64,000 bases of DNA. It comes from Escherichia phage ECBP2. Both the position numbers and the translations under genes were made by a program. The number at the start of each line of letters is the position of its first letter. The first letter of the stretch is position 1. This document shows positions 54,830 through 62,119 of the stretch, piece by piece. Under the pieces are notes generated by a model. It saw only the letters and a program-made list of their open reading frames with translations, searched no databases and was not told the DNA's origin. Where the stretch lies: sequence record NC_018859.1; one strand, 5' to 3'.

Positions 54830-56077
54830 TTACAGAGTTACTGCTACTTCACTACCTTCAACAGTTACAGACTCTAACTTACGAGGGTTATTAATCTGTG
54901 CTGGATGGACTGGAACGTTCCAACCACTGCGGTAGAAGTTACGACCATCGCAGAACAGAATGACATTGGCAGACATTGCATTAGGTTGCAGGTTGTTGTA
55001 AACATGACGAATATTTGCAATCCAGTAACCACGAGACAAAGTATAACCAGTAGGTGCATTACGAATAGTTTGAGTATTCATCTGACCTTCCAGTTGCATT
55101 TCTTCAGGAACCACATCAACTGAATCAACCGGTTGTGCTACTTGGCCTTCCAGTGCAAAGTTTTCATCGTCAGCACTTTCACTGTCAGCAACCAACTCAC
55201 CGTCTCCGTCTTCGATTGGAGCTTCAACAGGAGTCTGGTAAACTACTTTATACTGAGGAGTATAGAGAGGGTTTTGAGCTTTAACAAACTCAAGGATGTT
55301 GTGACGGTAGATATCCAGAGTTGTGCCAGTTAGGCCCGGTGCTGTATTAACTTCCAGTACCCATGCTTCTTGACCTTTGGTGATGATATCAACTGCACCG
55401 AAATCTAGACCCATTGATTCAACAGCTTTCACTGCGTTGATCAGAGAGGCATCGTTCGGAACGTCTGTGAAGGAACTTGAGTAAACCCAACCAGTGTGAT
55501 GGTTACGAACATCTTCACGATAGTTAGGGTCTTCACGATAACCGTTACGACGAATCTTTTTCTGAACATAGGTGATAGCACCTTTGAACACATGGACACG
55601 CCATTCACGACGTGGGCCTTGAATGCCTTTAGTGTACAGTTCAGCTCGACCAAGACCATCACCCGGTTCTACAACAACAATGCCCGAACCAGAGTGACCA
55701 GTCAGCTCATGGCGCTCATACACAATATTACCAGTGTTTGACCACTCTTGAGCAGTCTCTTGAACATCTGTGTATTCCACAGTTTTAACACCTGCTTGGC
55801 CCATCACGCTGAAAGCACGACGTTTGTTCGCTGCCATATGTAAGGCTGCGGTACGGTTAAGGACGGTTGCAGAACCAAAGAATGATTCAGGATAGCGACG
55901 GTTCCCGTAGTTAACAACCACATCACCTTCACGAGAACGCCAGCGGCTATTCTCTGAAAGAAGACCCATCACGTTAGCATTGATGCGTTCATCACGGATA
56001 GTATCACTGATAGCAGATACCAGAGCGTTAACAGAATCAGACGGGCCATACGGAAGAACACGGATACGAGTAGTCAT
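54830..56077 (-). CDS. ATP-grasp ligase (RimK/GshB-like)
   Basis: GHSGSGIVVVEPGDG and WVLEVNTAPGL segments typical of ATP-grasp enzymes; RBS AGGTA. Confidence 0.65.
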   Translation of the reverse strand: MTTRIRVLPYGPSDSVNALVSAISDTIRDERINANVMGLLSENSRWRSREGDVVVNYGNRRYPESFFGSATVLNRTAALHMAANKRRAFSVMGQAGVKTVEYTDVQETAQEWSNTGNIVYERHELTGHSGSGIVVVEPGDGLGRAELYTKGIQGPRREWRVHVFKGAITYVQKKIRRNGYREDPNYREDVRNHHTGWVYSSSFTDVPNDASLINAVKAVESMGLDFGAVDIITKGQEAWVLEVNTAPGLTGTTLDIYRHNILEFVKAQNPLYTPQYKVVYQTPVEAPIEDGDGELVADSESADDENFALEGQVAQPVDSVDVVPEEMQLEGQMNTQTIRNAPTGYTLSRGYWIANIRHVYNNLQPNAMSANVILFCDGRNFYRSGWNVPVHPAQINNPRKLESVTVEGSEVAVTL

Positions 56078-56525: not shown

Positions 56526-58559
56526 TTAATGTTTACCTTTACAGTAATCTGAATTACAGATCACCCTGTTTTCTTTGTTTAGTGAGCAAATTTCTGCATC
56601 ACGCCACGGAATTTGTTTATAACAGACTGCACAAAACCCAATTGAAGTCCAGAGGGCTTTTGTGAACTCAGCTGTTCGTTGTCCGTCGTAACTGACAACT
56701 GTTTTTCGGAGAGTTGTTTGCTTTTCTGGAAATGTCTCCGCTTTCTCAGCGGGCACCTCCTTTGGGGCATTCTTTGGACCATAAACAGAGATGGCATAGG
56801 TATCGCCACCACGTTTTTCCAAATAAGAGTTTGGAACATCAGACAATTCAATGTCACCAGAACGTTTAGCTGAGCTGACCATTACAATCATCCGGCTAAG
56901 CATACGCTGATCAACACGAACTGCTACTTCAGGGCGGCGTGGGTTAGTTGTGTCAACTGCTTTAGTCCAAATGTAACCTTCAGACAATGTAGTGTTAGTC
57001 ACTTTGTCTTTGATTTCTTTGGCACAGACATAACAAATGTCTTCACCACGCAGTTTACTCATTTCATTATCAAACTCGAAATCAGTTTTAACATTACCAC
57101 ACACAGCACAGACACCCAAAGGAATGTCTTCATCTTCTTCAGATGGTTTGGAGAGTGCTTCGAAACAGGCCGGATGCCAATATGCTTGGTAAGCGAACAC
57201 AGCTTTCTTAGCATCTTTCCAATCAATGTGCTTATCACAACCACCACAATCACCGTGAGAATGTGATTCCCAGAACTTACGAGTGACTTCTACACCATTC
57301 TTAGTGATGAAGGAGTCTTCTAAGTCAAAAGGGATATCATCATCAAAATCAGCGGTGGTGCTTTGAGGCTCCTTATCGGTAGCGTCAACAAACAGCCCTG
57401 AAGTTAGTACGAGGCGAATCATACTGTCCACTTCGGAGATACAAGCAACTGTCCCGCGATACACTACCTTTGGGTTTTCGAGAGCCTTCAAGTACTCACT
57501 CTTGGCTACATTATGAACATCACCCTCAACATATTCTTGAGCAGCATCATCATAAATATAACCAACCATCTTACCACGGTCAGTGTTGTTGTAAGCATGG
57601 AACTCGTGAGGGATGATATCCACACGACCATCACGACGATATGGAAGACCACGATCGGCAGCCAGTTTATTCTGATCTTCAATCGCTTTACGACGGCGAA
57701 TGTCTCCGCTTGTCACGCCGGGCTTGTCGTCTTTGTTTCCGTAAATGTCGCTTGTGCTGCTGCTTGATTTGTTTGTCTGTTGGCTCTGATATAGTGAGGA
57801 GTTCGAGTAATAGCCGCCCCAGCGACTCGTTACCGTAAAAACCGGAAGCTTGTGCTCCACCTCTTGAGTCAGAGTCATACGGTTGCCAGACAAATCAAAG
57901 ATGTATTCAGTTCCCACTTTACACTCAAAGTGATCATTGATACGGTTCTTGTGTGACTTGGAACGATTAAGAATCCACATCAACATATCTTCTTCAGAAG
58001 CACCAAACCAATCCAGACCACAACGGGCCAGATGGAAAGGACGTTCATCGTTACGAATGATATGCAGAGTATTGTCTTTGGCGTCATGCCAGATTAAAGT
58101 GAACGCACCATCCAACTTCTGGATAGTCTCTGCTGCACCAATGGTGTTGATTGAATGACAGATGTTTTCGCTATCAACTTCGAAGTTCTTATGGTCAGGT
58201 AACAGCTCTTGGTCCATCAATGTACCATTGTGAACCAGAGTAATGTCACCATGAGAGAACGGGTGAGCATTTCGAGCATTGACAGCGCCACGAGTGGCAT
58301 GTCGGCTATGACCAACAATCCACGCTGGAGGAACTACATAGTTCGTAAGCCCCTTAGTAATATTCGTGTACTCTGTCTGAAGCATGAAAGCATAAGAAGG
58401 AAGTGCTTCTTTATAAGAAAACACTCTTGCATCACTTTTACGCTGACCGAACACACCAGTTGAGTGCTGACCACGGAAGACTCCGGCATACAGAAGCTGG
58501 TTGAATACGTCTAAGTCTGTGGAGGTCATGTTGCCCCCAGCTAATACGATACCACAAAT
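56526..58559 (-). CDS. class II (Ntn-type) glutamine amidotransferase with Cys-rich zinc-ribbon C-terminal region; probable non-ATG (ATT) start
   Basis: FRGQHSTGVF, GHSRHATRGAVNARNAHPF and VHNGTL match class II motifs. The frame upstream of the first ATG (58529) reads K-I-C-G-I-V-L-A-G-G-N after a TAG, giving the canonical CGIV N-terminus with AGGTGG 8 nt upstream of ATT. Confidence 0.65.
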   Translation of the reverse strand: MCGIVLAGGNMTSTDLDVFNQLLYAGVFRGQHSTGVFGQRKSDARVFSYKEALPSYAFMLQTEYTNITKGLTNYVVPPAWIVGHSRHATRGAVNARNAHPFSHGDITLVHNGTLMDQELLPDHKNFEVDSENICHSINTIGAAETIQKLDGAFTLIWHDAKDNTLHIIRNDERPFHLARCGLDWFGASEEDMLMWILNRSKSHKNRINDHFECKVGTEYIFDLSGNRMTLTQEVEHKLPVFTVTSRWGGYYSNSSLYQSQQTNKSSSSTSDIYGNKDDKPGVTSGDIRRRKAIEDQNKLAADRGLPYRRDGRVDIIPHEFHAYNNTDRGKMVGYIYDDAAQEYVEGDVHNVAKSEYLKALENPKVVYRGTVACISEVDSMIRLVLTSGLFVDATDKEPQSTTADFDDDIPFDLEDSFITKNGVEVTRKFWESHSHGDCGGCDKHIDWKDAKKAVFAYQAYWHPACFEALSKPSEEDEDIPLGVCAVCGNVKTDFEFDNEMSKLRGEDICYVCAKEIKDKVTNTTLSEGYIWTKAVDTTNPRRPEVAVRVDQRMLSRMIVMVSSAKRSGDIELSDVPNSYLEKRGGDTYAISVYGPKNAPKEVPAEKAETFPEKQTTLRKTVVSYDGQRTAEFTKALWTSIGFCAVCYKQIPWRDAEICSLNKENRVICNSDYCKGKH

Positions 58560-58636
58560 TTTCTAATCCACCTGAAGGGTAAACCCTTTCATCTAATTAA
58601 CCTTTAAATGCGCCCTTTATCAGAGCGCCCATTGTA

Positions 58637-59737
58637 TTACAGCAGTCGTTCTAATTGCATTTCCAGATGGTCTGGAATATAACCAGTGACGTTATCATCA
58701 CTGCTACCCGATTCACGCATCAATGCAAACATGTGACGAATTTCACGAACCGTTGCGATTCGAGTGCTTTCAATCTGAGGGGTGTAATAGGTCATGATCT
58801 CTTCATAGACAGCGTTGGCATTACCACGAACATATCCCAAGAAACCATAGAAGTCACCCATATCACGCAAGTTGATAAGGACTTCACCATCAGGGCCAGT
58901 CTGTTGTACACGAACACGACCAACCAGAGTAACAGAATGTTCACGACAGAACAGAATATCACGAGCCAAACGATAACCACCAGTCAGGTCATCATCATTA
59001 GGTGTGTAGTCCAGAGGCAGATACTGAATCATAGGAGCGAAGCGTAGCTCATTCAGTTTCTCAACATATGCTTCATTGTCCAAATCTGCATACTCAACAG
59101 CCAGTTTCTTAAGAACCAAGAAGCGGTTGACCAGATTAAGGAGTTGGCTTTTCTTCCACTTTGGCTCTGAGATACGAAATTCAACAGAACCAAACTGAGC
59201 CAGAGGTAATAGGTTAAGGGAGGTGTACTTGTCCCAGCTATTAACAAGAGTATTGAAGAAGGCTTCACCATCTCGGTTGAACGCTGAGGAAGCATTCATT
59301 ACCTGTGCTTGAACAACAGCAAAGGCAGGACAGAAGTTGCTACGATAACGATGATATCCAGAACATTTGAACATCATCTTTTCATAGAACGTCCATCCAA
59401 GAATTACTTTCTTCAGGATATTACTATCAGCGTCACGCATATCCATATGAACGTGAGTAGAGCAGCGCCAAGTCCCTTCAGCTTCAGAGTCTTGTACTGC
59501 TTCACTCAGATTGTTAATAGCACTAAGCAATTCTACACCGTTGTAAGGCCGTGCACAAACCATCTCACAGCCATCACGAAGTGAACCATCTTCAGTACAG
59601 ACCCAAAGATCTGCATCAATTTCAGAGGTTCCTTCAACTTCCAGCTCGATGCCAATACCACACTGAAAAGCGATGCTTGGGTGCGGCTCAGCCAGACGAG
59701 CATTACGGTATCCAAAAACTTGTGCTACGGTTGTCAT
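58637..59737 (-). CDS. carboxylate-amine ligase (glutamine-synthetase-like, Amidoligase_2-type)
   Basis: CGIGIELEVEG, TEDGSL and CSTHVHMDMRD resemble the Glu/His ligand pattern of putative amidoligases. Confidence 0.55.
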   Translation of the reverse strand: MTTVAQVFGYRNARLAEPHPSIAFQCGIGIELEVEGTSEIDADLWVCTEDGSLRDGCEMVCARPYNGVELLSAINNLSEAVQDSEAEGTWRCSTHVHMDMRDADSNILKKVILGWTFYEKMMFKCSGYHRYRSNFCPAFAVVQAQVMNASSAFNRDGEAFFNTLVNSWDKYTSLNLLPLAQFGSVEFRISEPKWKKSQLLNLVNRFLVLKKLAVEYADLDNEAYVEKLNELRFAPMIQYLPLDYTPNDDDLTGGYRLARDILFCREHSVTLVGRVRVQQTGPDGEVLINLRDMGDFYGFLGYVRGNANAVYEEIMTYYTPQIESTRIATVREIRHMFALMRESGSSDDNVTGYIPDHLEMQLERLL

Positions 59738-60369: not shown

Positions 60370-61176
60370 TTAGATAATCTGAAGTTGAGAGGAGAACTTA
60401 TCCGCTTCTTTAACATCATTGCTGTTAATGATGTTGTGAAGCTTTTCGATAGGCAAACGGGAGTGCAGAGACATGAGGATTTCCATGTCACAGCCCTGAA
60501 TAACCTTATCAACTTGATCGTAAACAAACTTACGAGTGGACTGTTCACCAATCCAGAAGTTCGACAGAGAACGATATTCAATACCGTAATCTTTATAACG
60601 AATCGCCGATGCCTTACCGTAAAGTTCTTTACGACGAGTGTCCTTGTCCATCACAACCGCTGGAAGTGACAGGAAGTAATCGCACAGCACACCCAGCATC
60701 ATCTGAGTCTGACGACTAATTTCCAGTGTACCAGTAACACCGAGGTGAACGTGACCTCCAGCGGTACGCAGACCTTTGTCTGTCGCTACCGGAGATGGGT
60801 TTTTCTGACCAGTGAAGGCGTTGAAATCAGGAGTACAGCCAAATACGAAGGCTGACGGGTGGAATGATTCCAGCTCTTCAGCAGTATACACATGAGAGCT
60901 AATCCCAAGCGCAGCTTCCATACCACGTTCATGGAGAACTTTGTTGGTCAGATCAATACCACGCTGGATGTTATCATCAAACGCTTCAAACCCTTTCTGT
61001 GGGTTAATATCAAATTCAGCCAGAACGTTGTCTTCTTGAAGACGAACATCAGGGGCCAGATCGATTTTGTTATCTTTAGAACAGCCCAGCTTACCAGCCA
61101 CAGAGGTGATAACACCAGAAGCAGTACGAACAAACATTTCAGGGTCAGAACCAATAAGGAAAGCACGCTTAGTCAT
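60370..61176 (-). CDS. second carboxylate-amine ligase-like protein (COOH-NH2 ligase-type, putative)
   Basis: FLIGSDPEMFV and AGGHVHLG echo the G.E.E ... H.H pattern of the neighbouring ligase; ATG at 61176 overlaps the upstream stop (ORF-track start at 61221 is a GTG). Confidence 0.45.
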   Translation of the reverse strand: MTKRAFLIGSDPEMFVRTASGVITSVAGKLGCSKDNKIDLAPDVRLQEDNVLAEFDINPQKGFEAFDDNIQRGIDLTNKVLHERGMEAALGISSHVYTAEELESFHPSAFVFGCTPDFNAFTGQKNPSPVATDKGLRTAGGHVHLGVTGTLEISRQTQMMLGVLCDYFLSLPAVVMDKDTRRKELYGKASAIRYKDYGIEYRSLSNFWIGEQSTRKFVYDQVDKVIQGCDMEILMSLHSRLPIEKLHNIINSNDVKEADKFSSQLQII

Positions 61177-62119
61177 TGTAATACTCCACAAGTTCATCAA
61201 AAAGGGAAACAACACGGGCACCAGCTTCTTCTGGTGTCATTGAGGAAGGTACTGCTTGCATCAAGCGTTCAATAAAACTGCGAACAGTAATTCTGTCCAT
61301 ACGCTGATCTAATACTTCACGTTTATGGCCTGCACACATTGACCAGAGACGTAACCACTCACTCATACTTTCATAATAGTCAGGGTCTTGGTCACGACGA
61401 CGGGCCATACTACGAAGAACTCCGTCATTATGGTTTCGTACATAACCATCTCTGTTAGCGTCAATACCAAATATATTCTGAACCCATACGTTTTCAGAAA
61501 ATTCATCAGTTGAACAGACCAGTGGCAAAAATGCGATTGCACTCATTTCACCGGTAAAATAGGTCGCTGCTGATTCATCATCAGTATCCACATCATGTGA
61601 ATAATCCCAACGACCAAAGAAGTTACGACTTAAACCAGCTAAGCGTAAAGCTAAGCCGATTCGTTGTCGCTTGAGTAACTCTTCCTTGTCTTGAACGCCT
61701 TCCTGAAGGAACTCCATTCCCATAAAATCCCCATCCAGATAACTCCGGAGGGTCATTAATCCAGTAAACACCTTGTCTGCTGGATGGTCTCGAAGGTTCA
61801 CGGCAACTGAGTTCACCGAAGTGACAGAGAACATGTTTTTATAACAAGACATTGAGTTAAAAATGTCTGTTGCTTCAACTAAAGCTCTTTCGATATCTTT
61901 AGCTGGTGTGCTATAAAAGTTGTGAGGCCAGAAGTTAATAACTCCAATTTCTGAAGTTCTATCACGAAGGCTTGAGAGATTGATACTGTCGCCATTAATG
62001 TCTGTAACAGAATACATATGCTGACAGTTGAAAGTACCAAAACAAGCTCGCCCTCTGAACACTGACTCACCAAAGTCCTCTGATGGTGTTACCGGAGCAG
62101 TCGATGCGGAGATTGACAT
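61169..62119 (-). CDS. hypothetical protein
   Basis: 316 aa; RBS GAGG. Confidence 0.45.
   Translation of the reverse strand: MSISASTAPVTPSEDFGESVFRGRACFGTFNCQHMYSVTDINGDSINLSSLRDRTSEIGVINFWPHNFYSTPAKDIERALVEATDIFNSMSCYKNMFSVTSVNSVAVNLRDHPADKVFTGLMTLRSYLDGDFMGMEFLQEGVQDKEELLKRQRIGLALRLAGLSRNFFGRWDYSHDVDTDDESAATYFTGEMSAIAFLPLVCSTDEFSENVWVQNIFGIDANRDGYVRNHNDGVLRSMARRRDQDPDYYESMSEWLRLWSMCAGHKREVLDQRMDRITVRSFIERLMQAVPSSMTPEEAGARVVSLFDELVEYYND

Follow-up and report, generated by a model that had tools for sequence, protein, structure and literature searches.

A class II glutamine amidotransferase of phiEco32-like phages probably starts at AUU within a conserved hairpin-Shine-Dalgarno leader

We analyzed a 64,000-nucleotide stretch of DNA from Escherichia phage ECBP2 (NC_018859.1; the whole stretch is hereafter termed the window) and focused on the translation start of a minus-strand gene encoding a class II, N-terminal nucleophile (Ntn)-type glutamine amidotransferase (GATase). 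The window is from a phiEco32-like coliphage of the Gordonclarkvirinae and is 96-97% identical to TH42, TH34, and Bas88. Sequence comparisons indicate, with a probability that we place at about 0.85, that this gene, part of an amidoligase module, has genuine AUU initiation within a conserved leader made up of a hairpin, a Shine-Dalgarno (SD) sequence, and AUU or AUC. The observations below establish, or strongly indicate, that the protein needs Cys1, that the ATT is the only route to translating Cys1, and that the ATT and its leader are strongly constrained.

Read on the minus strand, the start region is ...AAGGGTTTACCCTT C AGGTGG AT TAG AAA ATT TGT GGT ATC GTA TTA GCT GGG GGC AAC ATG ACC..., and the translated frame across a short upstream open reading frame (uORF), the in-frame TAG, and the GATase start is stop-MKGFTLQVD-stop-KICGIVLAGGNMTSTDLDVF.... 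In this reading, the stretch from the TAG to the Cys codon contains no ATG, GTG, or TTG. A sequence-only reading of the window had proposed initiation at the ATT, and its placement of the TAG, the ATT, the TGT, the downstream ATG (58529), and the AGGTGG with its 8-nucleotide spacing proved exact to the base when we re-read the region. The proposal itself was supported by the ATG found in homologues, by the synonymous-only variation in codons 2-9, and by the lack of conservation of the downstream ATG. The uORF that ends at the TAG, the hairpin beside the SD, and the public annotation of the ATT had been overlooked.

At the position of the ATT, phages of other families have ATG TGT/TGC GGN (MCGIV) with an SD upstream; this is the case in Proteus P59, Cronobacter GAP52, Vibrio Vp_R1, Salmonella SE131, Aeromonas LAh_6, and Pantoea TacPo2, as well as in IMG/VR contigs that are 61-65% identical. 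The alignment with homologues that had been suggested as a check therefore found the Cys conserved and initiated from ATG in other phage families. The CGI segment, likewise pointed out in the sequence-only reading, is retained as CGIVLAGG throughout the phiEco32 group, while distant homologues begin MCGIV. Within the phiEco32 group, codons 2-9 always encoded CGIVLAGG and showed third-position variation in six of the eight codons (TGT/TGC, GGT/GGC, GCT/GCA, GGG/GGC/GGT, and GGC/GGT/GGA), and the 36 nucleotides upstream, from the hairpin to the ATT, had zero variation. Because codons 2-9 vary only synonymously and the upstream nucleotides are invariant, coding-type selection begins at the Cys codon. 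The position of the downstream ATG is occupied by CTG in phiEco32 and SU10 and by CTC in EP335.

Conservation of the leader was also seen over larger distances. Positions 58600..58551 (50 nucleotides, including ATT-TGT-GG) were 100% identical across 95 E. coli and Shigella phage records, as against an identity of only ~75% between genera for the GATase gene. The slightly longer block that is invariant in four E. coli phage lineages, despite GATase genes only ~75% identical, was the most conserved segment within ~450 nucleotides on either side. In the Aeromonas phage BUCT695, which belongs to a different family, the whole leader is 85.7% identical and the N-terminal domain of the protein 55% identical, and a metagenomic locus with 35% protein identity (L155) has AGGAGGATTAGAAAATTTGT where the window has AGGTGGATTAGAAAATTTGT. 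Conservation of the leader with its ATT is far above chance. Moreover, mass spectrometry of infected cells has identified 9 peptides of the homologous SU10 protein (PMC4281155).

The protein itself requires the residue that follows the ATT. Its start and length are the same in the Bas88, phiEco32, and SU10 records, and its N-terminal ~240 residues form a glutaminase domain, to which PDB matches were restricted and which matched Pfam GATase_6 (55 bits; cutoff 27), GATase_7 (25.8 bits; cutoff 25), and also GATase_4. In a profile of ten family members the Cys aligned with Cys1 of E. coli PurF (1ecb) and with residue 1-2 of GFAT1, and in the PHROG 4736 profile Cys is at position 2. The catalytic residues C2, R29, R86/T89, N111-G112, and D129 were invariant in the family alignment; in alignments to GlmS (1xff) and PurF, the GlmS counterparts are Arg26, Arg73/Thr76, the Asn98-Gly99 oxyanion hole, and Asp123. 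Such invariance of the catalytic residues means that the enzyme needs a free N-terminal Cys, and the Cys comes first, as it does in class II GATases, only if the ATT is taken as the start.

Start codons were then compared across the family using loci gathered through internal protein motifs from IMG/VR, metagenomes, genomes, and GenBank phages, a sampling that was blind to the start codon because the motifs are internal. After removal of duplicates, 142 loci were retained. The codon directly before the catalytic Cys was ATG in 105 of these, ATT in 22, ATC in 6, TTG in 7, and GTG in 1, with a single further locus having the arrangement ATG-TGC-TGT. Hence, ATT or ATC preceded the Cys in 28 of the 142 (~20%). 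Examples with ATT are L059, L066, L070, L085, L093, L095, L155, L167, and L170 (from the set L020-L192), and those with ATC are L069, L072, L081, L098, L101, and L105, the ATC type including two cultured representatives, Pseudomonas phage O4 and Klebsiella phage Klyazma. Clustering at 60% identity placed the ATT/ATC loci in at least 10 clusters, so that they are not a single clade, and four clusters mixed ATG with ATT/ATC. In the IMG/VR subset outside the phiEco32 group, 9 of the 11 ATT/ATC loci lacked any in-frame canonical start (ATG, GTG, or TTG) after the preceding stop and ahead of the Cys. We also observed that in the ATC-type leaders of O4 (L101), L072, and L098 an ATT directly precedes the ATC (ATT ATC TGY), and that many ATG-type marine loci read TAA ATT ATG TGY. 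Initiation at that preceding ATT would yield Met-Ile-Cys, a sequence that methionine aminopeptidase is not expected to process.

The ATT/ATC starts were closely associated with a small hairpin next to the SD. Under a criterion of a 4-7 base pair (bp) stem and a 3-6 nucleotide loop, ending 11-18 nucleotides before the start, the hairpin was present in 26 of the 28 ATT/ATC loci, in none of the 105 ATG loci, and in 1 of the 9 remaining loci (TTG, GTG, and ATG-TGC-TGT), which corresponds to a Fisher p of ~1e-25 with loci treated as independent. The gap between hairpin and SD was 0-2 nucleotides in most ATT/ATC loci, and the SD there was mostly GGAGG or AGGAG, 8-9 nucleotides before the start. Shuffled ATT/ATC leaders satisfied the criterion 5% of the time, and the mean folding energy of positions -42..-9 was -6.3 kcal/mol for ATT/ATC loci vs -2.3 kcal/mol for ATG loci. 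Among 19 distinct ATT/ATC leaders there were 16 different stem sequences, with double changes at every stem position; the hairpin of L155, for example, is GCATGT/ACATGC, and that of BUCT695 has an altered loop and a retained stem. In pairs of relatives that share at least 60% identity but not the start type (L066/L071, L167/L174, and L072/L068), the hairpin was an insertion that accompanied ATT/ATC. A leader of hairpin, SD, and AUU/AUC is thus a recurrent arrangement, present in ~20% of the family and in no case accompanying AUG.

Three other accounts of the structure were rejected. The hairpin is not a by-product of a strong SD, since ATG loci with strong SDs have none, nor is it a general feature of ribosome-binding sites in these phages, since a hairpin, SD, and start arranged in this way before a long ORF are essentially exclusive to the GATase in the 64-kb window and in 50,000 of the 50,509 bases of O4. 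A competing hairpin, one that would occlude the SD, was not conserved in BUCT695. In the phiEco32-type leader, the hairpin seems to have taken over an old SD (AAAGGG) for its 5' arm.

Several points weigh against this interpretation of the start and its leader. The p-value overstates independence because the loci are phylogenetically related, and the hairpin criterion was fixed after the data had been seen. The covariation counts are partly circular because hairpins were chosen for pairing, so that the meaningful controls are provided by the ATG loci and by the shuffles; moreover, the leader is not predicted to fold with unusual stability (z from -0.1 to -1.6). The detection of the SU10 protein comes without a peptide list, and hence leaves its N-terminus unmapped (PMC4281155). 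Finally, in the sublineage of the window the downstream ATG is preceded by GGGGG and could yield a minor product that lacks the Cys. Were this ATG instead the actual start, the protein would have neither Cys1 nor glutaminase activity, and the codons for CGIVLAGG would be an untranslated relic. The G-rich stretch before the ATG is in keeping with such a start, as are the annotations of SU7, EP335, BUCT695, O4, and Klyazma, which begin at the downstream ATG or even later. However, the ATG is missing from most relatives, the codons upstream of it show pure third-position substitutions with CGIVLAGG kept, all the other catalytic residues are conserved, and homologues begin MCGIV, and we regard a start there as very unlikely. 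A different role for the upstream sequence, one that would refine the AUU start and not replace it, is termination-reinitiation, in which ribosomes translating the uORF would stop at the UAG (58565..58563) and restart at the AUU, with the uORF driving much of the initiation there. The uORF shares the GATase frame and does not vary across the 95 records, a 4-codon uORF in L155 ends at the same TAG, and the spacing of stop, 3 nucleotides, and AUU matches the thrS-infC junction (UAA GGU AUU), where about half of translation is attributed to reinitiation (PMC3592434). Most other ATT/ATC lineages, however, have no comparable uORF or have the stop in another frame, BUCT695 has lost the uORF's own SD (AAAGG) and both of its uORF substitutions are non-synonymous, and the ATGAAAGG segment is shared with ATG-type relatives (GAP52, for example) in which it is just an SD region. 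The role of the uORF is uncertain because it is not conserved in the other ATT/ATC lineages; on our analysis, it may add reinitiation in the phiEco32 group but not family-wide, and termination-reinitiation appears unlikely overall, although it is a better candidate than a start at the downstream ATG.

Translation could also be imagined to begin at the ATG of the uORF (58592) and to read through the TAG, producing a 12-residue propeptide that would be cleaved autocatalytically before the Cys, as in B. subtilis PurF. Propeptides are known among PurF-type enzymes, and the uORF and the GATase share a reading frame. Yet the in-frame TAG, two codons before the Cys, is invariant in the 95 records and closes off any extension that would begin at a canonical codon; no tRNA gene is present in the window, and the only one in phiEco32 is for tRNA-Arg(UCU), which leaves both without an amber suppressor; the other ATT/ATC lineages have a nearby stop out of frame or no upstream ATG; and the SD is spaced for the AUU and not for readthrough. 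Given the absence of a suppressor tRNA, the invariant TAG, and the lack of an in-frame uORF in other lineages, we rejected this highly improbable scheme. Programmed frameshifting, considered because several lineages have GGAGGA followed by a stop at -7 and the window has an A-AAU-UUG heptamer, was rejected as well: in the window the frames miss that of the Cys, upstream ORFs are absent or highly variable in length, and tRNA re-pairing would be poor. There is scarcely any chance that the ATT is a sequencing error or a mutated ATG in a decaying gene, a notion with nothing in its favor beyond the rarity of ATT starts. Phages sequenced independently, 95 in all, have the identical sequence, as do several metagenomes, the ORF is intact over 677 codons and under purifying selection, and the SU10 protein has been detected (PMC4281155), such that this reading is effectively refuted by conservation.

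Returning to initiation at AUU, the SD AGGUGG would position the 30S subunit 8 nucleotides upstream of the codon at 58559..58557, and initiator tRNA would place formylmethionine (fMet) there. In bacterial initiation a near-cognate AUU is read by initiator tRNA as fMet, and in Ntn amidotransferases the fMet is then removed. Deformylase and methionine aminopeptidase would thus expose the nucleophile Cys1, and the mature N-terminal peptide expected from the ATT start is CGIVLAGGNMTSTDLDVFNQLLYAGVFR, with no Met. The sequence-only reading had made the Cys residue 1; the ATT, however, is itself decoded as fMet, and this must be removed first. The general leader architecture would comprise a 4-7 bp hairpin, 0-2 nucleotides, a strong SD, 8-9 nucleotides, AUU/AUC, and UGY GGN. 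Hypothetically, the hairpin and the strong SD stabilize or position the 30S subunit and thereby give a near-cognate codon time to be accepted; alternatively, the hairpin might be a 5' stabilizer or a protein operator. More tentatively, and with odds somewhat below even, the leader (hairpin, SD, N8, and AUU/AUC) is an exchangeable control module that has repeatedly been swapped with ATG leaders and in which the hairpin is mechanistically required if a near-cognate codon is to be used efficiently or under regulation. In such a module the hairpin may stack on the SD/anti-SD helix, act as a protein operator, or set sensitivity to initiation factor 3 (IF3). The yield from AUU is several-fold below that from AUG (PMC3592434). 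As a near-cognate codon, AUU would also be discriminated against by IF3, as it is in infC. By analogy to infC and pcnB, the effect of the AUU leader is likely to be low, tunable expression, and it is possibly sensitive to IF3.

The ATT start is already present in public records. In the GenBank record of phiEco32 (EU330206, 2008), the coding sequence (CDS) of phi32_83, a 'glutamine amidotransferase', starts at ATT, and it alone does so among 128 CDS (112 ATG, 13 GTG, 2 TTG, and 1 ATT). An ATT start is also deposited for SU10 (both versions) and for the BASEL phage Bas88. The earlier description of the start as a rare ATT is supported as a reading but is not new as an annotation. In contrast, the CDS of SU7, EP335, BUCT695, Pseudomonas phage O4 (L101/L195, gp56), and Klebsiella phage Klyazma (L105) were annotated from a downstream ATG; these are 10 to ~60 codons short, and the deposited proteins lack the catalytic Cys1. 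Truncation of the GATase CDS also accounts for a 391-nucleotide unannotated gap in O4. The full-text literature searched, with the phiEco32 genome and transcription papers outside it, contained no description of AUU/AUC starts in phage amidotransferases, nor any discussion or experimental proof of the phi32_83 start codon. Thus, the ATT start is known as an annotation, while the recurrent use of AUU/AUC and its coupling to a hairpin across the family appear to be undescribed.

Table 1. Features of the amidotransferase start region and the surrounding gene module, in window coordinates
Feature	Position	Strand	Basis or remark
In-frame TAG	58565..58563	-	Sequence
AAA codon	58562..58560	-	Between TAG and ATT
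ATT (AUU), probable initiation codon	58559..58557	-	Replaces ATG of distant homologues; invariant in 95 records
TGT, catalytic N-terminal nucleophile Cys (Cys1 once Met is removed)	58556..58554	-	Invariant C2; aligns with PurF/GFAT1
Shine-Dalgarno AGGTGG	58573..58568	-	8-nucleotide spacer ATTAGAAA to ATT
First in-frame ATG, not conserved	58529..58527	-	10 codons downstream of ATT; start in some annotations
In-frame 9-codon uORF, MKGFTLQVD and stop	58592..58563 (ATG 58592..58590)	-	Stop 3 nucleotides before ATT: UAG AAA AUU
Hairpin AAGGG-TTTA-CCCTT	58588..58575	-	3' end 1 nucleotide 5' of SD
Invariant leader block TAAAGGTTAATTAGATGAAAGGGTTTACCCTTCAGGTGGATTAGAAAATTTGTGG (56 nucleotides)	58606..58551	-	Alignment of four E. 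coli phage lineages
7-bp stem-loop just past amidoligase stop codon	58610..58628	-	Fold and alignment
Class II (Ntn-type) GATase, full CDS, 677 codons and stop	56526..58559	-	ORF, Pfam, PHROG 4736
COOH-NH2 ligase	60373-61221	-	Pfam/PHROG; module member
Hypothetical protein	Between COOH-NH2 ligase and Amidoligase_2	-	Module member
Amidoligase_2	58640-59737	-	Precedes GATase in module
Two small ORFs	Between GATase and ATP-grasp gene	-	Module order
RimK-like ATP-grasp protein	54833-56077	-	Pfam/PHROG; module member

The gene belongs to a phiEco32-type module of amidoligase, COOH-NH2 ligase, and ATP-grasp genes (Table 1). Beyond residue ~192 we found no SIS or other Pfam domain, the C-terminal ~430 residues being without a Pfam match, and because no SIS domain is present in the protein, the database name 'L-glutamine-D-fructose-6-phosphate aminotransferase' is unjustified. 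This C-terminal region (56529..57830) is Cys-rich, with CxxC-type clusters such as CGGCDKH..C, CAVCG..CYVC, and CAVCY..C..C, which suggest candidate zinc ribbons. The mechanically called ORF of the COOH-NH2 ligase starts at GTG, but the match to the PHROG profile does not begin until residue 16; an internal ATG (MTKRAF...) is probably the true start. Pseudomonas phage O4 (Zobellviridae, L195) has the phiEco32-like combination of an ECF-type sigma factor and a GATase/COOH-NH2 ligase/amidoligase/ATP-grasp module, as well as a second, separate 'glutamine amidotransferase' gene (gp58).

Other elements around the leader were also examined. An Rfam 15 scan of 58300..58800 returned no match near the gathering score, and neither a sigma-70 promoter nor an intrinsic terminator was found in the leader. 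A promoter for the phage sigma factor (gp36) was rejected, as no TAATGTATA-like match within one mismatch was present near 58560-58640. Upstream of the hairpin, the minus-strand block 58589..58606 (TAAAGGTTAATTAGATGA) is invariant in all E. coli phiEco32-like phages and has related motifs in the ATG-type loci L024 and L027 (TTTAAATGTAAATTAGAGGA) and in Pseudomonas phage Lyrsu01 (L102; CTAAAGGTTAATAGAGGG); it matches neither the gp36 promoter consensus nor a sigma-70 promoter. Farther upstream, the stem-loop just past the amidoligase stop codon had compensatory changes between lineages (GCGCTCT/AGGGCGC vs GTGCCTC/GGGGCAC) and only a short T run after it, and from its sequence could be a weak terminator or an element for RNA processing or stability. 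Additionally, HNH endonuclease genes are located directly upstream of the GATase in Bas89 (between GATase and amidoligase) and in Klyazma (L105), which makes the junction that carries the leader a possible hotspot of insertion or exchange.

Natural initiation at AUU or AUC is very uncommon among bacteria and phages, with infC and pcnB as the textbook cases. Here, one enzyme family uses AUU/AUC at about one locus in five, across many lineages and with near-perfect co-occurrence of a hairpin. An active enzyme looks dead in the records because gene callers that ignore ATT/ATC cut off the catalytic Cys. The family also constitutes a natural set of variants (ATG vs AUU/AUC, with and without hairpin) for probing how structure at the SD affects acceptance of a near-cognate start, and it hints that glutaminase dosage is under selection in phages. 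If the leader does prove to be an exchangeable module, it would represent a natural, family-wide case of structured-leader-dependent non-AUG initiation in bacteria.

The closest known counterparts are the orthologous genes of phiEco32 (phi32_83), SU10, and the BASEL phages Bas86-94, which have an identical leader and a deposited CDS beginning at this ATT. For the hairpin, T4 gene 43 provides a comparison, with a hairpin translational operator next to the SD, that is, a small hairpin directly 5' of the SD of one gene. In the GATase leaders, unlike T4 gene 43, no binding protein is known, stems differ among lineages, and the hairpin is associated with start-codon type. For the start codon, E. 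coli infC and pcnB likewise have an AUU initiator with an SD, conserved across orthologues, and several sequence features that characterize starts of their type were found here: a near-cognate codon with no canonical alternative, an SD at functional spacing, conservation, and AUG in homologues. In infC, as in the window, an upstream stop precedes the AUU by 3 nucleotides (UAA GGU AUU vs UAG AAA AUU; PMC3592434). In contrast to both genes, the phage family alternates AUU with AUC and AUG and ties AUU/AUC to a hairpin abutting the SD; moreover, the upstream ORF of infC is a real gene and that of the window a 9-codon uORF, and IF3 autoregulation has no obvious rationale in the phage case. Enterococcus faecalis ebpA similarly has an ATT upstream of a mis-annotated ATG, which was read as limiting pilus expression, but it encodes an unrelated protein with no N-terminal catalytic constraint, and it is not known to be associated with a hairpin (PMC4447247). 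At the protein level, PurF, GlmS, and AsnB share Cys1 and the conserved Arg, Asn-Gly, and Asp of the glutaminase domain with the phage protein, which, unlike them, has no SIS, PRTase, or AsnB synthase domain. Finally, B. subtilis PurF exposes its Cys by cleaving an 11-residue propeptide, whereas the phage protein would do so by removal of the Met after initiation at AUU.

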